Positions 2,328 to 60,580 of a stretch of 64,000 nt of DNA are shown here, piece after piece (position 1 is the stretch's first letter; every line of letters begins with the position of its first letter). The notes under the pieces were generated by a model that worked only from the letters and a program-made list of their open reading frames with translations, did no database searches and was not told the origin of the DNA. Position numbers and translations under genes: made by a program. This DNA is from Wickerhamiella versatilis (taxonomy: Eukaryota), in the NCBI GenBank assembly GCA_030867685.1, contig JAQOWU010000003.1, forward strand, positions 372,001 to 436,000. The letters run 5' to 3'.

Positions 2328-4652
2328 ATGGAATTGTCAGAGAGTCCTAAAAGGGATGTTGAAAAAGATGCATCACATATATATATTGGCAATTTAGAAA
2401 CTGTGGAGGTTGATCTAGAGCTACCTAGCAGGGGTCAATCTGGATCATCTATTTTTTGGGAGTCGAGCAATACACAGTGGATTGAGAATAATGGTAAAGT
2501 CCATCGTCCAGAATATGGACGTGGTGATCGTGAGGTAATACTCACTGCGAAAGTTGTAAAGGAGGGAGCGATGGCGACTCGACAGTTTGCAGCAAGGGTC
2601 TTGCAGAAAGCTAGTAAAATCGAAATCTCATTGGTATATCCCATTAATATCACCGTCAAACAAGGAAAGAATTTCTACCTTCCGATGTTTGTGTCAGCGA
2701 AGACCTGTGATGGCCGTGTTCTTTCTCTTCGTGTGAATTGGGAAGGCGGTGTTGAGCACGAGGCCAACTTCCGGGGTCAAATGACTTATTATGGATTCAT
2801 GGAAGATGGAAATGTGAATATTCAAGCAAATGTTGCATCAAGTCGGAATGGGCCTTTTCCACCCATAAGTACGAAACCCTCAGTGAAATGTCTTGGACTC
2901 GAGCATGTCCGACTCACGGGACAGGGGTTCTTAGCTTTAAATCAGCGTCGCCGAATAGAATATTTACACAATGTGGATGACGATCAACTCCTCTTTGAGT
3001 TTCGTAAGACTGCGGGGCTTGATACGAGGGGTGCTACTGAAATGCTCGGGTGGGACTCTTCGGAGTCTCAGCTTCGCGGACATACTACAGGTCACAACCT
3101 TTCAGCATATGCCCTGGCGTATGGCGCAACTGGAGATGAAAAAGTCCTAGAGAAGCTCAATTACGTTGTTGGTGGATTGAAGGAGGTTCAAGATGCGCTC
3201 CTGAGCAATGATAAGTGCCATTTTGGATTTCTAAGTGCATACGATGAAACGCAATTCGATGAATTAGAGCGATTTATCCCATATCCTACAATATGGGCTC
3301 CTTATTACACTCTGCATAAGATTATTGCAGGCCTCCTTGATGCACATCGGTACGCATTTTCGAATGTCGCATTGGATGTTGCTGCCAAGGTGGGTGAATG
3401 GGTGTATAATCGACTGTCAAAATTACCCCATGAGCAATTGCAGAACATGTGGAGCATGTATATCGCTGGTGAATTTGGTGGAATGAATGAGGTGCTCGCC
3501 AAGCTCTTTGAGCGAACGCATAATCAAAAACACCTGGAGGCGGCTACCCTCTTTAATAATGATAGATTGATGTACCCTATGCAGCAGCATATAGATGCAC
3601 TGGGTGGGCTGCATGCTAATCAGCATATTCCTCAGGTAGTTGGCTCCGTACAACTATTTAAATCTACTGGCTTGCCGATTTACCTTGAGCAAGCTAAAAT
3701 GTTCTGGGAATCGGTCGTAACACATCATACCTATGCAATGGGTGGTACAGGGAAAGGTGAAATGTTTGAACAGCCTGATATGATTGGTTCGTTACTGGAT
3801 AATAATACTGCCGAATCCTGTGCGACTTACAACATGTTGAAACTTACTGCTTCGTTGAGTGAGTACTACCAAGATGCTAAGCATGGTGAATATTACGAAA
3901 ATGCCACCATAAACCATATAGCATGTACCTCAGATCACCTACCTAATGGTGGTAGCATATACTTTCTACCAACATCGCCCAATGGACGAAAGGAGTTTGA
4001 TACTGAGAACAGCTGTTGCCATGGATCAGGTCTTGAATCACATTTCTACTATGCACTGGGTGCAAACTATGTGGACGAGTATTCACTTTATATAAAGTTG
4101 TATCTCAATTGTAGAATCTACGATCGAGAAGAAGGGATTGATATTGAAGAAGTGGTTGAAGATTCATCACCTGAAAAGGTAACAATTCACATCAAGCGGT
4201 TAAATAGACAGGAGTTACACTTCCGCTGTCCAGGCTGGTCACGCGCTATGGCAGAAATATCCCTTTCAGGAAATGGTATCGCGTCACGTCATATGGTCGC
4301 AGATAAAGACGAAATTGTTCTTTCAAAAAAGCATCTGAAAAATGCCGGCGCGAGTAATTGGGAGGGTATCACAGTTGAATTACGATTTCATCCTCACATA
4401 TATGTTTCACGGACGTTAGATAAACCAGAAATTGCCGCAATATTTTGGGGCCCATACTTGCTGGCTGCCCTCAGTGATGGAAGCCAGCTTTTGGAACTTT
4501 ACATCGATGATAGGGATCCTGACCAAGCATTTGAACGCAAAGTTGCTTCCAATACGTTTACACACAAGAGTAGTGGTGTGAAATTTGTACCATTGTGGCA
4601 GATTAATGAACAACCATACTGCATATATGTCAGGATACTTATAAGTGCGTAA
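2328..4652 (+). CDS. Beta-L-arabinofuranosidase-like glycoside hydrolase (GH127/GH146, DUF1680) with N-terminal bacterial Ig-like domains
   Basis: Motifs LRGHTTGH, WAPYYTLHKI, GEFGGMNE, HANQHIP, ESCATYNMLK and SCCHGSGLE. The N-terminal LELP..G.SGS.I.WESS...G.V.RP is a bacterial Ig-like signature. No signal peptide. Confidence 0.88.
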   Translation: MELSESPKRDVEKDASHIYIGNLETVEVDLELPSRGQSGSSIFWESSNTQWIENNGKVHRPEYGRGDREVILTAKVVKEGAMATRQFAARVLQKASKIEISLVYPINITVKQGKNFYLPMFVSAKTCDGRVLSLRVNWEGGVEHEANFRGQMTYYGFMEDGNVNIQANVASSRNGPFPPISTKPSVKCLGLEHVRLTGQGFLALNQRRRIEYLHNVDDDQLLFEFRKTAGLDTRGATEMLGWDSSESQLRGHTTGHNLSAYALAYGATGDEKVLEKLNYVVGGLKEVQDALLSNDKCHFGFLSAYDETQFDELERFIPYPTIWAPYYTLHKIIAGLLDAHRYAFSNVALDVAAKVGEWVYNRLSKLPHEQLQNMWSMYIAGEFGGMNEVLAKLFERTHNQKHLEAATLFNNDRLMYPMQQHIDALGGLHANQHIPQVVGSVQLFKSTGLPIYLEQAKMFWESVVTHHTYAMGGTGKGEMFEQPDMIGSLLDNNTAESCATYNMLKLTASLSEYYQDAKHGEYYENATINHIACTSDHLPNGGSIYFLPTSPNGRKEFDTENSCCHGSGLESHFYYALGANYVDEYSLYIKLYLNCRIYDREEGIDIEEVVEDSSPEKVTIHIKRLNRQELHFRCPGWSRAMAEISLSGNGIASRHMVADKDEIVLSKKHLKNAGASNWEGITVELRFHPHIYVSRTLDKPEIAAIFWGPYLLAALSDGSQLLELYIDDRDPDQAFERKVASNTFTHKSSGVKFVPLWQINEQPYCIYVRILISA

Positions 4653-20504: not shown

Positions 20505-23500
20505 CTAAATAGGTTCATCACGAGGTTCAACGAGGATTTCATTTACGGAGACATGTTCTGGTTGGCGAAGAGCATAAACAATTGCATCAGCTACATTTTC
20601 TGGGTCTAGTATTTTTGCCCCCGAGCTTCCACCATATTGTTTGATTGCTTCTTCATCTGATGACATATTCAAAAGGTCTGTTGCACAGTTTCCTGGTTGA
20701 ATTGCAGTCACACGAAGTCCTTTGCCTGCAGTCTCAAGACGCAAAGACTGAAGAGTAGCTTCCACAAAAAACTTACTTGCAGAATAAACTCCCAGTCCCG
20801 GAAAAACCTTACGGCCGGCATCTGATGAAATTGCGACAAAATGGCCTTTTCCACGAGAAAGCATATCTGGTACGGACGATGCAATACTATGGAGAAGACC
20901 TTTGCAATTAACATCAACAGTCCGATCCCATTCTTCAGTAACATTGTTTTGCATAAGCGTGAAATACATTACGCCAGCACATGATACCACTATGTCGACA
21001 GGACCCAGCTGAGAAGTAGTGTTCACAAAAAGCCGATGAACTTGTAGAGGATCAGTAACATCAGTCTCTTGGATAAGGATACGGCCATTATGTATAGCAA
21101 TACGTCTCCGGACATCCTGAAGGGCGGAGGAACGTCTAGCTGCGATTGCAACATGGCAACCTTCTCTCGCAAGAGCAACAGCAACGGCTGCTCCAATACC
21201 ACTTGAGGCACCTGTGACAACAGCAACCTTCCCACTGAGAGGACCCTTTGAGTGGGAATACGCTGAGCCACCCAGAGCGGAGCACGCACTGGGGCCATGA
21301 GGAAGCCAGCCTCGGGCATACCAGTGCTTGGTATATGTTTCCAACAATACTTTACCAATTACAGGCCGACTAAGTTGCTGCAGGAAACAACTAGTCTTTG
21401 TATTTTTGAGAACTATCACTCCAGTTAGAAAGTCTACTGACGGCATGCCGGAGCGTAATACATCTAAGGTAAAAGCACCTTCACCTCCCCTTATGCCTGC
21501 ACGCGTTTCATTCCATTGGTGTACCCAAGCATCCCAAGAAAGATGTTCTGTTGGGTAACCCAGAGAAGATAATTCTCTGAAGACCGATCGCATGCTTGGC
21601 GGATCTGAATTGCCTAGATGAAAAACTGGCTGTTGAACAGTTAATGGATCATTTGCAAGATGAACAACGGCACTCGCAACAAAATCGACTGGAGTAATCT
21701 CAGCATACCAACCATCAACATCAGGAGCTTTCCCCATGTGGAGAGATTCAACCACAATTGCATTGAAAAGATCCCATGCATTAGATGCACCGCTTGAGCT
21801 GTGGCCGCAAATTGTACCAAGTCGGAATATGCGAAGTGGAATACCACGTCTGTAAGCTTCAGTGGCTAGCTGTTCAGCAACCCATTTGGTCTGACCATAC
21901 CCATCAGCAAGCTTTTCTGGGACCTCATCTACAGATAGCGAGTAGTCTTCAGGCCAGCCATCTTGAGAAGGGGGAAGAACACCATTCGTTGAGATATGAT
22001 GCACTGTAGACCCAGAAAGAGATGCTAATCGCAAAATTTCAGTTGTCCCACCTACATTAGCATCACGTAGCGCTGCGTAAGGGTACACCAAATTCACTGT
22101 CGCAGCTGCATGCACAATAACCTGGACACGTTCAACAAGCTCCGCGAAATCCTTTACAGATAAGCCAAGGTTTTTTTGAGAGATATTTCCAGGAAGAACC
22201 TCTATCCTATCCATAATAGAATCACGCCACAATCCCAAATCTAAGAGATGACGACGGATTCTAGCTACGCCACTCGGAATATCATTGTGCTCCGGAGTTT
22301 TGAACCTTACAAGACACACAATGTGTGCATTAGTTTTTTCCAGCAGCTCGTTCAGCAGAAATGCACCCAAAAATCCTGTAACTCCGGTTAGCAGGACAGT
22401 ATCTGCCTTATTGATGGGCTTGAAGCTGGTGTCTTCTCTAGGTGATATACTTGGATCCAGAGTACAGTCCTTCTTCAAAACAGAGACAAGGTCAGACTCC
22501 AATAATCCTGCATCACCATCCCTAAGTGCCCTAAGAGTACGCAAATGGCCAGGAATAGTTGCATCGTCTACAAGACGAGCTATCGGAACCTTGAACCCAA
22601 ATTCAGCATTCAACCGTGATGCAAGGTGAGCAAGTAGCAAAGAATGACCTCCAAGATCGAAGAAATTTACTTCTGTTGAGACTACGTGCCGTGGTACTTT
22701 CAGTGTGGACGCCCATATATCAGTGATAGTATCAACATTTATCGGGTCCCTGTCATTCTTCAGTGCCGGCTTTTTGTGGACCTCTGGTTCAACATCATCT
22801 GGCCTCTTGGGAAGTGGAAGACTCTTAAGATCAACTTTTCCAGAGACTGTATTAGTAGGAAGCTCAGGGAGCTCCATCCACAAAGTTGGAATCATGTACA
22901 GCGCAAGGTGAGGTGCAAGTACACGACGAGCCAGAGGACTGTAAGCAGAGTAAGAATCTATTTCAATCTTGGGGCGTTCTGCTGATGGTTTATTCTCATT
23001 GTCTGTCACAATGTAAGCGATAAGTTGCTTGTCTAAGCCGTCACCAACAGATGTCACAGCACAGTGACGTACCGCAAGATGCTCAATTATTGCACTCTCA
23101 ACTTTACCTGGAACAACAGAATATCCTCGAAGCTTTATCATGGCGCCGATACGACCGGTAATCTCTAACAATCCATTCTCAAGAATTCGAGCGACATCGC
23201 CTGTTCGATACATACGCGCACCTGGTGTGGCATCAAACGGATCAGAAACAAATGAAAGCGCTGTCGTTTCTGGTCTATTCAGGTAACCACGAGCGAGCAT
23301 TGGGCCACCAATATATAGTTCGCCAACAGTTCCGATTGGTGCTTTATGTCCTCTATTATCCAAAATGTATGTGTATCTTGGCTGAAGCGGGGGGCCTACG
23401 GGACAGTATTTCTCAGAAGAATCGAGCATTGATACCATTTCCCGAATATCACCACAGGCTATTTCATGAGTTTCACATGCACTGTAACAATTTAGCAAAC

Positions 23501-24383
23501 GTACTTTCGGCAATGCTTGCAATGCACGTCGCGCAAAATCCATAGTCACTACCTCCCCATTTAGCCATACACGCTTGAGATCAGGCAGCTCATTTGCAAG
23601 TCCGGTTGGATTCCGTGCCAGAATGGTGGCAAGTAGAGTAGGTGTGAACAGAGTTTCTGTCACCTTATGCTCACGAAGAAATTCGAGAAGAGCATCAGGG
23701 TCATATGATATCTCGTCAGGTACTGTAATGACAGTACCGCCGCGCAGCAACGGACGGATAATCTCCCAGATGAAAAACACATTGCATGCAACACGATCAC
23801 CAATATCAACATCACTAACAGTAAAGCGTAGATCATATGACAGCACAGGAGCTCTGTGGGGATTCGCAATGCCTTTAGGATGACCTGTTGTCCCTGAGGA
23901 GTAGGATACAAAGGACAGTCTGTCCAAATCGGTCTCAGCAGGAATGGGAGGAAGCTGAGGAACCCCCTGAACAGAAGTAGACCGCGATTCAGGTTCATCT
24001 AGCACCAACACAGGTATATCCTCTCTGATTTTTGAGGAATGCTCCTTAACTGTAACCACAGCCGTAGGGTTACTATCATCCAAAACATCAGAAAGCAATC
24101 GCGGAGGATAAGCAAGTTCAAGCTGCATAAATGCCCCACCAGCGTGTAAAATAGCTAGACATGCAATTACATAGTCTGCGCCCCGTCCAAGGTATACACC
24201 AACCTGACTGTCACGTCCCACACCTAGCCGTCTGAGCCTATGCCCCAACGACATGACTTTCAAATAGAGTTCAAAATACGTGTATCTGGTAGTATCATCC
24301 TCTAAGGCGAGCAAGTCTGGTGTTTCATTTACCTGCTGCACAAATAGTGCATTAAGATCCTTGCTCGTATCTATAATGGCCAT
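20505..24383 (-). CDS. ATRR: NRPS-like A-T-R1-R2 enzyme, glycine betaine reductase type
   Basis: Adenylation domain (YSSGTTGHPKG, YRTGD), carrier domain (FFDLGGHSL), thioester reductase (LLTGVTGFLG, GYGQTKWVAE) and C-terminal SDR (VTGASSGIG, YSASK, ...EPRDEPI). Confidence 0.9.
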   Translation of the reverse strand: MAIIDTSKDLNALFVQQVNETPDLLALEDDTTRYTYFELYLKVMSLGHRLRRLGVGRDSQVGVYLGRGADYVIACLAILHAGGAFMQLELAYPPRLLSDVLDDSNPTAVVTVKEHSSKIREDIPVLVLDEPESRSTSVQGVPQLPPIPAETDLDRLSFVSYSSGTTGHPKGIANPHRAPVLSYDLRFTVSDVDIGDRVACNVFFIWEIIRPLLRGGTVITVPDEISYDPDALLEFLREHKVTETLFTPTLLATILARNPTGLANELPDLKRVWLNGEVVTMDFARRALQALPKVRLLNCYSACETHEIACGDIREMVSMLDSSEKYCPVGPPLQPRYTYILDNRGHKAPIGTVGELYIGGPMLARGYLNRPETTALSFVSDPFDATPGARMYRTGDVARILENGLLEITGRIGAMIKLRGYSVVPGKVESAIIEHLAVRHCAVTSVGDGLDKQLIAYIVTDNENKPSAERPKIEIDSYSAYSPLARRVLAPHLALYMIPTLWMELPELPTNTVSGKVDLKSLPLPKRPDDVEPEVHKKPALKNDRDPINVDTITDIWASTLKVPRHVVSTEVNFFDLGGHSLLLAHLASRLNAEFGFKVPIARLVDDATIPGHLRTLRALRDGDAGLLESDLVSVLKKDCTLDPSISPREDTSFKPINKADTVLLTGVTGFLGAFLLNELLEKTNAHIVCLVRFKTPEHNDIPSGVARIRRHLLDLGLWRDSIMDRIEVLPGNISQKNLGLSVKDFAELVERVQVIVHAAATVNLVYPYAALRDANVGGTTEILRLASLSGSTVHHISTNGVLPPSQDGWPEDYSLSVDEVPEKLADGYGQTKWVAEQLATEAYRRGIPLRIFRLGTICGHSSSGASNAWDLFNAIVVESLHMGKAPDVDGWYAEITPVDFVASAVVHLANDPLTVQQPVFHLGNSDPPSMRSVFRELSSLGYPTEHLSWDAWVHQWNETRAGIRGGEGAFTLDVLRSGMPSVDFLTGVIVLKNTKTSCFLQQLSRPVIGKVLLETYTKHWYARGWLPHGPSACSALGGSAYSHSKGPLSGKVAVVTGASSGIGAAVAVALAREGCHVAIAARRSSALQDVRRRIAIHNGRILIQETDVTDPLQVHRLFVNTTSQLGPVDIVVSCAGVMYFTLMQNNVTEEWDRTVDVNCKGLLHSIASSVPDMLSRGKGHFVAISSDAGRKVFPGLGVYSASKFFVEATLQSLRLETAGKGLRVTAIQPGNCATDLLNMSSDEEAIKQYGGSSGAKILDPENVADAIVYALRQPEHVSVNEILVEPRDEPI

Positions 24384-56863: not shown

Positions 56864-58288
56864 TCAATGTATAGGGAAAGCTTCAGATAGCCTGGTCATT
56901 CTGGCGGGATCTGTCACACTCCAAAATTTATGCGCTGCCTCCCCAACAAGATTAGAAGATTCCTCTAAGTCTTGCTTGTCGGATGGGGCAAAGGATATGC
57001 GGAAGTAGCGGGCCATATGATCTGCGTCATCAGGTACAGGGGCAAACATGTACCCAGGGCTCACTAAGGTTGGACGCGACTGCTCGGTTTGGAACATCCA
57101 AAATGCTCTTGATAGGTTAAGGGACCCGATTCTTTCATACAGAGGATGACGCTCAAAGTGTACAAGTACCCATACGAACATACCTGCCTGGGGCGGTGAA
57201 TAGTCCAGGATACGCTCTGCGCCCATATACATCCACTTCTCAAGCCCACGACATAATAAGTCCCTCCGTTCGTGATATTCTCTCTCTAGGCTTTCCAGCC
57301 AGTTCATCCACCCTGCATGACCCCAGTTTTTAAGCGTTTTAAGCACTATCAGTTGGGAAAATCCGGAGGGATGCGCATTAACTTCTTCGGTCTGATAGTA
57401 CAGTCTCCTTATAAGGGATGGCTGAGCAGTCACCCAGCCGAGTCGTGAGCCTGGAGCAAAGTTCTTGGAAAAACTATCAAGACGAATAACCCGTCCATCA
57501 ATATCTATCTGTAAATAACATTTCTCTTTTTCGGGGCTGTACTGTAGAAACCAATACGGTTCGTCTTCAGCAATGATAACATCGAAATCACTGAGTATTT
57601 TATAAAGTTCCTTTCGACGACTCAGAGGTGTGGTTGCACCAGTCGGGTTCTGGCCAATACTTACTGTATAGAGGAGATGGGGTCTTTTACCTTTCGTGGA
57701 GTCCCAATTCGCCAGGGTCTCGTACAGGGCATCGGGTAGCATACCATACTGGTCCATTGCAACCGAGACCACGTTGAGGCCACGAACACGAGCAGCCTCC
57801 GCTGCGCATGAATATGTGAACTCTTCAACAAGAATTCCCTGGCGGTTATTTACATCACCCTCATCATCCCACTCATTACTCAGGACTTGGAGGACCTTGG
57901 ACCATCCGTCAGTAGTACCGGAGGTAATGAGAGTCTCAAATCCTGGTTCATATAGGGGTGTAGCAATGTAGTCATAGGTAAATTTGCGAATCCACTCCGC
58001 CAGTTCCTTCAATCCCGATGCTTTGCCGTATTGAAGTCCGTTCTCCAAATCACGATGTGATGCTGAGACAATATGCTCTGGAGCCGATGGGTTTTCAAGG
58101 CGTTCCGGGTCGGCAGTCTCCGCCTGCACCCAGTCAATAGGGAAAAGTGATGGGTGAGGAAGCCCACCACTGAGGTCACTTATACCAGGAAGTTCTTGAT
58201 ATTTATAGAATAGCTTGTACACGTTGGCTTTCCGACGACGTGCTGGACCACTCAGGTAATGCTCTAATGATACTGGTTGAGGACCCAT
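56864..58288 (-). CDS. PLP-dependent class I aminotransferase (Aro8/2-aminoadipate transaminase-like)
   Basis: LSGGLP, LQYG...G, LYTV..GQNPTG, EDEPY, DSFSK..APG.RLGW (PLP Lys) and AGMF.W. ATG at 58288. Confidence 0.9.
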   Translation of the reverse strand: MGPQPVSLEHYLSGPARRRKANVYKLFYKYQELPGISDLSGGLPHPSLFPIDWVQAETADPERLENPSAPEHIVSASHRDLENGLQYGKASGLKELAEWIRKFTYDYIATPLYEPGFETLITSGTTDGWSKVLQVLSNEWDDEGDVNNRQGILVEEFTYSCAAEAARVRGLNVVSVAMDQYGMLPDALYETLANWDSTKGKRPHLLYTVSIGQNPTGATTPLSRRKELYKILSDFDVIIAEDEPYWFLQYSPEKEKCYLQIDIDGRVIRLDSFSKNFAPGSRLGWVTAQPSLIRRLYYQTEEVNAHPSGFSQLIVLKTLKNWGHAGWMNWLESLEREYHERRDLLCRGLEKWMYMGAERILDYSPPQAGMFVWVLVHFERHPLYERIGSLNLSRAFWMFQTEQSRPTLVSPGYMFAPVPDDADHMARYFRISFAPSDKQDLEESSNLVGEAAHKFWSVTDPARMTRLSEAFPIH

Positions 58289-58706
58289 TCTGTCAATTGC
58301 TAGTGGGGGGACTTTCACAAGACAGGGTAGGTTACTCCGCAGGTGATGACTGTACTCTTATCATGCTGGGGTTTCATCATTTAGCCGCCTGGCGGCTGTT
58401 GAACGCGTCCTCCGGAGCCATTAGGTTAGAAAGGGACATTATAGGATTGATAATGCTGCTTCAGATTTCTTTTGTTTGATTATGGCGCCTTTCTGCGATT
58501 ATTTATGTCCACCGATTACGACTTACCTTTAGAAGAAACTGGGACACAGTCTGTCTACCAACCAGTTCACTGTTATAGTATAAAATTTTTGGTAAATCAC
58601 TAGTACTACACGTAACGAATGGTAGGCGTCTTGCTTTAAGAGTAATATGTACCAACACCATCTAGCTAGAATATTAGCTCCATTTACCATAAAAGAGTAA
58701 GCACAA

Positions 58707-58786
58707 TTTGCATTTCTCACGCAAGTACAAGCTTGATCGAGTTCAAACGGTATCTTCTCAGCTCACATAGGAGCGCCCGCAGCAAA
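58707..58786 (-). ncRNA. TPP riboswitch aptamer, copy B (3'-most)
   Basis: Minus strand reads UUUGC-U-GCGGGC-GCUC-CUAUGU-GAGC-UGAGA-AGAUACCGU-UUGAA-CUC-GAU-CAAG-CUUGUA-CUUG-CGU-GAG-AAAU-GCAAA. Stems: P1 UUUGC/GCAAA, P2 GCGG/CCGU, P3 GCUC/GAGC, P4 CUC/GAG, P5 CAAG/CUUG. The UGAGA J3/2 and GCG motifs are present. Confidence 0.88.
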
Positions 58787-58882
58787 ATCATGCTTAGAAA
58801 ATGGCACACTGGACTCCTCTTCACACATGCTTAGAGATCAGAGGCAAAAGTCCAAGGAAAAATGAAGGAAATAAATAACCTA

Positions 58883-58968
58883 TAGCGTCGATCCTCACGC
58901 AAGTACAAGCTTGATCGAGTTCAAACGGTATATTCTCAGCCCAGCCAAGGGGCACCCGCACAACGCCA
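58883..58968 (-). ncRNA. TPP riboswitch aptamer, copy A
   Basis: Minus strand reads UGGCGUUG-U-GCGGGU-GCCC-CUUGGCU-GGGC-UGAGA-AUAUACCGU-UUGAA-CUC-GAU-CAAG-CUUGUA-CUUG-CGU-GAG-GAU-CGACGCUA. It has an 8-bp P1, P3 GCCC/GGGC and the TPP core motifs; only the L5 loop is atypical. Confidence 0.9.
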
Positions 58969-58977
58969 AAAAAAGAA

Positions 58978-59025
58978 CTGTATATGTTAGTCGTAACCGA
59001 TTCGTAATTTCATTTTGATACTTAC
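58978..59025 (-). other. 48-nt spliceosomal intron in the 3' UTR of the NCS1 permease
   Basis: CAG|GTAAGTAT donor at 59025, GACTAAC branch point at 58992-58986 and TACAG acceptor ending at 58978. It starts 46 nt after the TGA stop. Confidence 0.75.
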
Positions 59026-59071
59026 CTGGTCAGAAGGATAGGCCGTAATTGCATTCTGATGAATTAGGGTG

Positions 59072-60580
59072 TCATGTTACCACACCCCTAAAGTAAATCT
59101 CGATTGGACGCGTAACTAAATATGCAAACGCGGTAAACCCGAAAGAGAGGAAAGTGCCAAGTTCGCCACCCTCAACTCCAATTGTCTGGGCTAGTCGTCC
59201 AACATAGTAAGTCTGGTCCATTCCGATAACCGCCCCAGCTATTCCGCAGCAAAACGAAAACGTGGCGGCCCACATGATTGGAAAATGTCGAGGGTTGTCC
59301 CATTGGACCCACTGATAGTCTGGCTTCCCAATACGCATTACCAGTGTCTCCAGTATAAGAATAGTACCATACATCACACTCCAATAGCCAATCATGGGAA
59401 TAAAGTTATTCACAGTATCTGCCCACTTGCTACGGCCCACAGATGAGAGCACGAAAAATATGATACAGCCAAGAAATGTGTAAATAAAGCGCGGAAGCTT
59501 TTTCAGAGGTCTTCCTAATGTCTGACAACCAAGACCGAACGAGTACATCGTGAAAGTTAAATTGAAGATGATGGAAATGAAAACTAGGACAAGTAAAAAC
59601 TTACCACCACCTTTCCATCGCTTCATACTTTCTGCCAATAAGCCGGCGGCATTACCACCATCGTTATAAAATGCGTCATAGAGATTCTGGGATCCAAAGG
59701 TCGCACCCGCACTGAGTCCTACCCCAATTGCACCTACAAAAACGGTAGGAACCCACATTGCAAATAAGGTGGAGAAATAAACCTTCCATGGTTTACAATC
59801 TTCGGGGAAATAGATGTAGTAGTCCCCGCAGCCAATCCACGTGGAAGTGATTCCTACGCTGGACTGGAACATCCCTATCCAAGAAACAACTCCACCAGAT
59901 CCAGAACTTTTATTCGGAGCTATGGTGTCCCAGTCTCTTGCTGTGCAAATATACACCAACAGGAATGCAATCAGTACTGGCCCTACAAATATATTGTCGA
60001 ATAGAGATACAGTGGGAATTCCAAAAAGCGTAACAAGGGCAGTAGCTAGGAAAATGATTAGAATGCCATAGAAAGTGTCCATTGATTTGTCTGAAACTGC
60101 AGAAAGCAACTGGCCTCCAAATACTGCAGATACGATTGCAAATCCCACACCAGTGAGAAGATTCAGCAATGCAATAAATTTAGCAGGCCACCATCCAAAC
60201 TGGTATCGAACTCCAACCATCGATCTAAGCCCACTTCTTACACCCATTACTGCTCCAAAAGCACCAAAAAGGGATCCAACAAAGGTTCCGAAAAAAGACG
60301 CGCTTAACGAGCCCTTAAATCCAAGACCAAAAAGTTGGCTGCCGGTAAAGAAGCCCGTCATGGACGTAACACTTCCACAGGCAGCCAGCCATATAGCTAG
60401 AAGCCTCGAACAATGGCGCCAGTCAGCTTGAAGTCGTTCCTCAGGTATTCGCCTTTCAATGCCCCAGCCTTCGCCTTGCCTATATATCCAATCGACAACA
60501 AGCCAAAGATAGCGAAAAGGGGCATAAGGCCGGATCTCGGTATAGACACTCCCATACTTCTTTGATGCTTCTTGTGTCAT
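59072..60580 (-). CDS. NCS1 purine-cytosine permease family transporter (TPN1/FCY2-like)
   Basis: GIER, F.G..LFGL, G..SGLR.MV..RYQFGWW, V.GGQLL.AVS, DYY, YS.GL..Q, PR, NF..MIGYW and IGMDQTYYVG, with about 12 TM segments. Confidence 0.92.
   Translation of the reverse strand: MTQEASKKYGSVYTEIRPYAPFRYLWLVVDWIYRQGEGWGIERRIPEERLQADWRHCSRLLAIWLAACGSVTSMTGFFTGSQLFGLGFKGSLSASFFGTFVGSLFGAFGAVMGVRSGLRSMVGVRYQFGWWPAKFIALLNLLTGVGFAIVSAVFGGQLLSAVSDKSMDTFYGILIIFLATALVTLFGIPTVSLFDNIFVGPVLIAFLLVYICTARDWDTIAPNKSSGSGGVVSWIGMFQSSVGITSTWIGCGDYYIYFPEDCKPWKVYFSTLFAMWVPTVFVGAIGVGLSAGATFGSQNLYDAFYNDGGNAAGLLAESMKRWKGGGKFLLVLVFISIIFNLTFTMYSFGLGCQTLGRPLKKLPRFIYTFLGCIIFFVLSSVGRSKWADTVNNFIPMIGYWSVMYGTILILETLVMRIGKPDYQWVQWDNPRHFPIMWAATFSFCCGIAGAVIGMDQTYYVGRLAQTIGVEGGELGTFLSFGFTAFAYLVTRPIEIYFRGVVT

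Follow-up and report, generated by a model that had tools for sequence, protein, structure and literature searches.

In the 64,000-nucleotide (nt) stretch of Wickerhamiella versatilis DNA analyzed here (contig JAQOWU010000003.1, positions 372,001 to 436,000; hereafter the window), two complete thiamine pyrophosphate (TPP) riboswitch aptamers lie in tandem in the 3′ untranslated region (UTR) of a predicted permease gene. We tentatively propose, as a reading that falls somewhat short of probable, that this tandem riboswitch controls splicing from a donor at position 59025 by masking it with the P4/P5 arm, mainly that of the first aptamer, and that it turns expression off at high TPP. At low TPP, the arm's 3′ strand (L5–P5–J5/4) would quit its weak hairpin and pair with GUAAGUA, so that U1 could not reach the donor. 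Bound TPP would lock the arm in the aptamer and leave the donor free. Splicing in the 3′ UTR would then lower expression, either through nonsense-mediated decay (NMD), the junction being downstream of the stop codon, or through an altered 3′ end. The intron spliced in this way would be a verified one of 48 nt or longer ones reaching candidate acceptors after each aptamer.

According to Rfam, the window contains two matches, both of them TPP aptamers on the minus strand (−). Each match is full-length (model positions 1–105), and the gathering score of the family is 54.3 bits. The aptamers and the block that they share, in positions of the window, are:

58875 to 58969 (−): TPP aptamer 1, P1 to P5 without P3a (Rfam RF00059, 61.0 bits, E 1.7e-09).
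58696 to 58790 (−): TPP aptamer 2 (Rfam RF00059, 56.6 bits, E 1.9e-08).
58894 to 58931, equivalent to 58716 to 58753 (−): 38-nt identical block comprising the P2 3′ strand, J2-4, P4, P5, L5 and the P4 3′ strand (aptamer alignment, columns 55 to 92).

Aptamers 1 and 2 start 103 and 282 nt past the permease stop codon, respectively. Both contain the conserved junction letters CUGAGA, ACC..UUGAAC, GAUC and GCG, and P1 to P5 can form in each. All 21 of the modelled pairs are canonical in aptamer 1, as are 20 of the 21 in aptamer 2, where one P2 pair is C-A. In the Rfam alignment, P4 is CUCG/UGAG and P5 is CAAG/CUUG in both aptamers, an A/U-rich P5 as compared with the consensus ccGG/CCgg. L5 reads CUUGUA in both, against a model consensus of uUAAUa, from which it departs at two of the four upper-case letters (AA to UG). 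The alignment thereby bears out the initial annotation of this DNA, made from its letters alone, which had called the loop atypical. A rigid pattern of the arm, which would miss aptamers with other P5/L5 lengths and is a rough sign only, matched once in a collection of 185,579 prokaryotic species. This sole match, in Rhodococcoides fascians, is not a TPP aptamer, and the arm therefore appears to be unusual among TPP aptamers of that geometry.

The splice site was characterized by comparison with contigs of relatives (X1, X2, X3 and X6) that are ∼97–99% identical to the window. X3 and X6 are one organism, designated organism C, with contigs of up to 460 kb in which the locus is collinear with the window. 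X1 and X2 are two other organisms from two studies, and their longest contigs are ∼12 kb. Two features were placed in this way:

59015 to 59028 (−): 5′ splice site region, CAG/GUAAGUAUCAA, with its GU at 59025–59024, 46 nt past the stop codon (sequence; joint in the X1 and X2 contigs).
58978 to 59025 (−): 48-nt 3′-UTR intron, GUAAGU..CUAAC (58990–58986)..CAG (58980–58978) (X1 and X2 contigs; motif scan).

A 3973-nt contig of X1 and a 224-nt contig of X2 skip positions 58975–59025, with five letters between. The gap amounts to exact removal of a 48-nt GT..AG intron together with two extra U in a U-run, and the junction is 59026/58977. The long contigs of X3 and X6 keep the intron. The X1 contig runs from ∼60700 to 56675, that is, from ∼120 nt before the permease ATG to ∼190 nt beyond the stop codon of an aminotransferase gene downstream, and its ends look like transcript ends rather than arbitrary ones. 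It covers both aptamers, which places two complete aptamers for the same ligand on one transcript. The X2 contig reads across the junction from the end of the permease coding sequence (CDS) through all of aptamer 1. We take the donor at 59025 and the 3′-UTR intron as real, the RNA nature of X1 and X2 being the guess of the tool that labelled them ('RNA?'). The initial annotation had placed a 5′ splice site in the 3′ UTR. Both parts of that statement agree with these data: the 48 nt are removed precisely in X1 and X2, the permease open reading frame (ORF) upstream is complete, and the contigs link the end of the CDS to the aptamers.

Two further observations concern the intron and its surroundings. 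The U-run that follows the verified 3′ splice site and precedes P1 of aptamer 1 (58968–58974) is variable in length, with one additional U in X3 and X6 and two in X1 and X2. The branch region of the intron (58981–58999) and the sequence around a second GUAAGU (58513–58531) are complementary at 79% over 19 nt, with 11 contiguous pairs by hand. This inverted repeat was set aside as unremarkable, ∼0.5 being expected per 800 nt by our own estimate.

The 3′ strand of the arm is complementary to the donor. The donor-complementary segments are:

58896 to 58908 (−): anti-donor segment of aptamer 1, UUGUACUUGCGUG, made up of L5 positions 2–6, the P5 3′ strand, J5-4 and nt 1–2 of the P4 3′ strand (hand pairing; RNAduplex).
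58718 to 58730 (−): second copy of the anti-donor segment, in aptamer 2, with no difference from the first (repeat alignment).
58696 to 58706 (−): third donor-complementary stretch, UUGUGCUUACU, 3 nt past P1 of aptamer 2 (−9.6 kcal/mol).

Paired by hand, the donor and UUGUACUUGCGUG form 7 bp over GUAAGUA (one of them G-U), 3 bp past a bulged U and 2 bp past a G-G mismatch; RNAduplex favours a U-G pair over the bulged U. The predicted energy of the duplex is −10.8 kcal/mol for the 13-mer, −11.9 kcal/mol for 20-nt windows and −12.8 kcal/mol with wider flanks. A P4/P5 strand is thus complementary to a 5′ splice site over 7–8 contiguous pairs plus flanks. Of all 20-nt windows over the 610 nt that follow the donor, the two anti-donor segments score best, at −11.9 kcal/mol each. 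Sites of −11.9 kcal/mol or better number 38 per 128,000 nt of both strands, these two included, and ∼0.027 are expected per 95-nt aptamer. The segment in aptamer 2 is a duplicate and is therefore not an independent event. By itself the P4/P5 hairpin is weak, at −4.3 kcal/mol versus −10.8 to −11.9 kcal/mol for the donor:arm duplex, and an arm swap to the donor is therefore energetically possible. The third stretch, UUGUGCUUACU, was rejected as a signal: it does no better than chance, 232 sites of at least its energy occurring in 128,000 nt. It resembles the L5/P5 anti-donor sequence in 8 of 10 letters.

Masking of this type has precedents. According to Li & Breaker (2013), P4-P5 nucleotides block a 5′ splice site without TPP in NMT1, THI4 and plant THIC, and the initial annotation, which had invoked NMT1 and THIC, reported this correctly. 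The complementarity described here reads as that canonical mechanism, and its tandem version in a fungal 3′ UTR reads as new. The proposal also fits the two Rfam scores, both above gathering, and the Tpn1/Fcy21-like family of the gene, putative transporters of that kind (the AN4526.2 group) being among the riboswitch-bearing fungal gene groups described by Donovan (2018).

Several observations weigh against masking of the donor by the arm, and some of these concern the complementarity itself. The pairing drawn in the initial annotation is correct base for base; the pairs outside GUAAGUA, which it had also counted, are at chance level. The donor ranks only sixth among the 28 GUAAGU sites of the window when each is paired with the arm (−12.8 kcal/mol; mean −10.2, SD 2.6), such that the arm resembles a generic anti-5′-splice-site sequence rather than one tailored to this donor. 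We count three of the seven core pairs as already supplied by the ..UA conserved in L5 together with the C of J5-4, and a random P5 strand would therefore complete the seven in ∼1/64 of cases. Paralogous aptamers in the relatives share ∼84–89% of the core, and the arm may accordingly be a lineage trait. Other points concern the order of events. The observed intron ends 9 nt upstream of aptamer 1. Because the only junction seen closes there, the mask would be transcribed after the intron is complete, an order that no characterized TPP splicing switch has. With 58978 the sole observed acceptor, the aptamers do not lie between regulated 5′ and 3′ splice sites, and the X1 contig retains both of them with the 48-nt intron removed. 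If the X1 and X2 contigs are DNA, the relatives simply lack the 48-nt intron. Junctions from the donor to the candidate distal acceptors described below (58830 and 58666) were not seen in the X1, X2, X3 and X6 contigs, an absence that carries no weight, as contigs drop rare forms.

The predicted folding of the donor adds to these points. Minimum-free-energy folds of 181, 356 and 406 nt gave three different partners for the donor, and ensemble shares were therefore used, as weak evidence. They were computed on 59045–58640 for donor positions −2 to +7, with models that are weak for long-range and co-transcriptional events. In the unconstrained ensemble, the donor is unpaired at 0.24, in a local hairpin of the mini-intron at 0.35, with the arm of aptamer 1 at 0.13, with that of aptamer 2 at 0.02 and with UUGUGCUUACU at 0.23. 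Across ensembles, the donor is mainly in the local hairpin, paired with 59012–58998 (0.35–0.61); the share of aptamer 1 is 0.13–0.31, that of aptamer 2 is 0.01–0.02, and UUGUGCUUACU takes 0.23–0.87 in some folds. When aptamer 2 was shut, aptamer 1 took 0.31 of the donor; when aptamer 1 was shut, aptamer 2 took 0.01. Forcing both aptamers into the Rfam fold raised the unpaired share from 0.24 to 0.39, which counts in favour of masking; the predicted gain in accessibility is small.

Further points against the proposal come from its presumed output and from a known riboswitch. A junction 46 nt past the stop codon is borderline under the 50–55 nt rule for NMD of the type that depends on the exon junction complex (EJC). 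The EJC has been lost in baker's yeast (NMD review). In favour of the proposal, exon junctions and introns in 3′ UTRs do trigger EJC-dependent NMD in Neurospora (same review). In the budding-yeast gene DUR31, thiamin raises the level of unspliced RNA, and splicing depends on the riboswitch (Donovan 2018). Because thiamin raises the unspliced form, the response of DUR31 is opposite to the release of a donor.

The folding results also bear on how the two aptamers would share the task. The initial annotation had proposed a double lock, in which both ligand-free aptamers sequester the donor equally and splicing needs TPP on both, yielding an AND gate with a steeper response that keeps the core identical. 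The ensemble modestly supports aptamer 1 as a mask, and leaves a symmetrical double lock without support. Thus, the claim that either ligand-free aptamer blocks the donor is modestly favoured for aptamer 1, at 0.13–0.31, and disfavoured for aptamer 2, whose share is 0.01–0.02 even with aptamer 1 forced shut. A double lock would account for the identical anti-donor segments and their equal duplex energy (−11.9 kcal/mol each), and tandem riboswitches that share a ligand in bacteria do give more 'digital' responses (Sherlock et al. 2022). Yet ∼300 nt separate the anti-donor segment of aptamer 2 from the donor, transcription reaches that segment ∼250 nt past the end of the observed intron, and both the local hairpin and the third site at 58706–58696 compete for the donor. 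We consider the double lock improbable. Within the masking model, aptamer 1 is the likelier mask. By analogy with bacterial tandem riboswitches, aptamer 2 would most likely be a second independent sensor that sharpens the response ('pseudo-cooperative') rather than an equal second lock.

The identity of the core bears on the same question. The statement in the initial annotation that the core is the same in both copies holds for 38 of 38 nt. The wider aptamer repeat matches at 48 of 50 nt (96%), and the flanks and P1 are unlike. Between aptamers 1 and 2, both partners are changed in three of the four P1 pairs and in one of the four P3 pairs, all of which stay canonical; aptamer 2 has one broken P2 pair. 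Despite divergence outside the core, the two copies still fold, and both therefore seem to have been kept as aptamers. Because the helices of the P4/P5/L5 block are free to vary in the family, an identity of 38 nt amid diverged copies calls for exact-sequence selection, which would favour the double lock, or for gene conversion. Gene conversion between tandem repeats would explain the identical core equally well. A variant of the AND gate, in which the two aptamers share the one 3′-UTR donor, each has its own alternative 3′ splice site, the transporter is shut off at a threshold and the identity of the arms is selected, appears to us a similarly slim prospect. Its AND logic would explain the identical core.

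Several observations on the relatives and on the repeat stand beside these data. The relatives X1, X3 and X6 contain at least three further loci that match the aptamer core only, the flanking sequence being unlike. These matches have 12 differences in 77 nt (to 58708–58784), 8 in 49 nt (to 58714–58762) and 4 in 38 nt (to 58892–58929), and the loci presumably represent paralogous TPP riboswitches with a similar P4/P5 arm. Those of X1 lie mid-contig, the contigs being 1.6 and 3.4 kb long. The 10-nt sequence UCUAAGCAUG (−) forms an exact direct repeat, with one copy directly before aptamer 2 (58789–58798) and the other in the linker between the aptamers (58826–58835); position 58792, inside this repeat, differs in X3 and X6. 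More distant loci were sought with the permease alignment in metagenomes, where 246 pattern matches reduced to 14 loci of 29–34% identity. TPP aptamers were found at 0 of these 14 loci, and the only Rfam matches there were two tRNAs. The 14 loci are distant homologues, not orthologues, and have no bearing on covariation between L5 and the donor.

The complementarity might instead be a by-product, with the aptamers acting otherwise, on 3′-end formation or mRNA stability, or being decaying duplicates. Four fitting letters in P5 suffice for the core pairing, the ∼1/64 frequency given above being that of a random 4-nt P5 strand, and the flanking pairs do no better than chance. The local hairpin is predicted to hold the donor regardless. 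TPP aptamers in diatom 3′ UTRs have, moreover, been reported as non-regulating (PMC9544697). Against this explanation, both aptamers score above the gathering threshold and have kept their pairing through compensatory change, and none of the differences of organism C (X3, X6) within 58724–58923 falls in an aptamer. The arm is also unusual and matches the established masking strand. A by-product is, in our view, a slimmer chance still than the double lock.

An explanation that does not need the mask concerns the 3′ splice site. A motif scan identified two candidate acceptors beyond the verified one:

58830 to 58841 (−): candidate branch point and 3′ splice site after aptamer 1, CUGAU with AG 8 nt on, giving a 196-nt intron (motif scan).
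58666 to 58677 (−): candidate branch point and 3′ splice site after aptamer 2, CUAAU with AG 8 nt on, giving a 360-nt intron (motif scan).

Both candidate CURAY-N8-AG modules share their geometry with the verified acceptor, and the candidate 360-nt intron (59025 to 58666) would hold both aptamers. At low TPP, the donor would join 58830 or 58666, removing aptamers and shortening the 3′ UTR. With TPP abundant, the aptamers would fold and allow only the 48-nt removal, leaving a long, unstable 3′ UTR. Regulation would then resemble that of DUR31, by choice of the 3′ splice site or retention of a long intron, and the match between arm and donor would either be fortuitous or aid looping of the RNA.

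This explanation draws on the three CURAY-N8/9-AG modules of the same geometry, one before aptamer 1 (the verified acceptor), one after it and one after aptamer 2. The U at 58837 is C in X1, X3 and X6, which changes CUGAU to CUGAC and keeps the CURAY consensus. In the relatives, the downstream flank of one paralogous aptamer reads GACUAAC..UAG, a branch and acceptor module. In the characterized TPP splicing switches described by Li & Breaker (2013) and Donovan (2018), the aptamer is always inside the regulated intron, and the response of DUR31, with its riboswitch-dependent splicing, points the same way (Donovan 2018). The X1 contig, with the proximal intron removed and both aptamers kept, has the form expected at high TPP. 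In NCU01977, long-range pairing of the 3′ shoulder of P1 brings the splice sites together (Li & Breaker 2013). On the other side, no contig has a junction to 58830 or 58666, and CURAY is common, with five found in 640 nt against ∼2.5 expected by our own estimate. The proximal acceptor, being transcribed first, should usually win, and the unusual anti-donor arm is left unexplained. We regard regulation at the 3′ splice site as possible, if on the unlikely side.

The aptamers might also belong to the next gene on the minus strand, a class I/II aminotransferase with its ATG at 58288, as part of its 5′ leader rather than of the permease 3′ UTR. The end of aptamer 2 is at least 408 nt upstream of this ATG, fungal TPP riboswitches are mostly in 5′ UTRs, as far as the sources at hand describe them, and the X1 contig is continuous over both genes. 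The GUAAGU at 58526 and a CUAAC..AG at 58429–58410 could form a leader intron. This assignment is nevertheless very improbable. Such an aminotransferase is not among the riboswitch gene groups named in the available text of Donovan (2018), whereas the Tpn1/Fcy21-like permeases are. The X2 contig ties the end of the permease CDS to aptamer 1 over a spliced junction. Finally, the aptamers are upstream of the putative leader intron, not inside it, and X1 showed no splicing at 58526, the putative intron being unremoved.

Donor masking by the arm of a 3′-UTR aptamer, as we tentatively propose, can be set beside known systems. It resembles NMT1 (THI5) and THI4 of Neurospora crassa in being fungal and in having a P4/P5 strand complementary to a nearby 5′ splice site. 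In Neurospora, a single aptamer lies inside a 5′-UTR intron with two alternative donors and upstream ORFs. Here, by contrast, two aptamers share a 3′ UTR with one donor, and both lie beyond the end of the one intron observed. Plant THIC shares the 3′-UTR location of the aptamer and a single 5′ splice site. Its splicing alters the 3′ UTR, with lower expression at high TPP (Li & Breaker 2013; Donovan 2018). Unlike the present locus, THIC is a plant thiamine-synthesis gene with one aptamer. Its intron carries a 3′-processing signal. The AN4526.2 group belongs to the same broad permease family (PF02133, Tpn1 similarity), a comparison made by family and not by orthology.

The tandem arrangement has its closest parallels in bacteria, where 213 tandem TPP arrangements with 'digital', pseudo-cooperative responses have been reported (Sherlock et al. 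2022). These likewise place two complete aptamers for one ligand on a transcript. In the bacterial tandems each aptamer has its own terminator or ribosome-binding-site platform, whereas here one splice donor would be shared. The available text of that review treats bacteria only and contains no occurrence of 'eukaryot'. Among eukaryotes, two aptamers occur in the 5′-UTR intron of NMT1 of the oomycete Saprolegnia, a tandem precedent, and 3′-UTR aptamers are reported for eIF5B of Postia placenta, there as a single aptamer beside an unrelated gene; the available text of Mukherjee (2018) gives a mechanism for neither. Tandem TPP aptamers in a fungal 3′ UTR were not described in the literature searched, which did not include Moldovan et al. 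(2018) or the supplementary tables, where such cases may be listed, that accompany Mukherjee (2018) and Donovan (2018).

The gene upstream of the aptamers is as follows:

59072 to 60580 (−): permease ORF, single exon, 502 aa (ORF list and sequence).

The predicted protein matches PF02133 in Pfam (E 2.8e-11). The NCBIfam ncs1 model gives 118 bits, under its cut-off, and CytX, a putative hydroxymethylpyrimidine transporter, gives a weak match of 31.5 bits. Among 15 homologues, the top two are unnamed (P0002, 79% identity; P0003, 61%), the best of those with a name is Sugiyamaella Tpn1p, at 41%, and none is from Aspergillus. The homologues are 502–548 aa long, with invariant residues as far as E494, and the ORF, which stops at TGA (59074–59072), is therefore complete. 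Judged from these matches, the protein is a permease of the NCS1/purine-cytosine (Tpn1/Fcy2-like) type, with the fold of that family and similarity to Tpn1. Its cargo is probably thiamine or a thiamine precursor.

Elsewhere, the 64-kb window contains Zn2Cys6 regulators, which mark the DNA as fungal, and two ORFs of unusual composition:

2328 to 4652 (+): 774-aa ORF with a GH127 beta-L-arabinofuranosidase domain after bacterial Ig-like domains (aBig_2, Big_4).
20505 to 24383 (−): 1292-aa ORF with AMP-binding, PP-binding and NAD_binding_4 (reductase) domains and a C-terminal short-chain dehydrogenase (SDR) domain.

The domain architecture of the first is unusual for a fungus and suggests a bacterial origin of the gene. 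The second, from its domain order, appears to join a carboxylic-acid-reductase-like enzyme to an SDR.

To our knowledge, eukaryotic riboswitches are few, and the characterized ones are all single TPP aptamers inside regulated introns. If the proposed masking is correct, the permease locus would provide the first fungal parallel to the arrangement of plant THIC, and the first candidate for tandem 'digital' riboswitch logic that acts on the spliceosome rather than on bacterial terminators. At ∼400 nt, the device would be a compact test bed for how RNA structure downstream of an intron affects splice-site use and for mRNA decay that depends on the 3′ UTR. It would also add support for Tpn1/Fcy2-like permeases as transporters of thiamine or its precursors.

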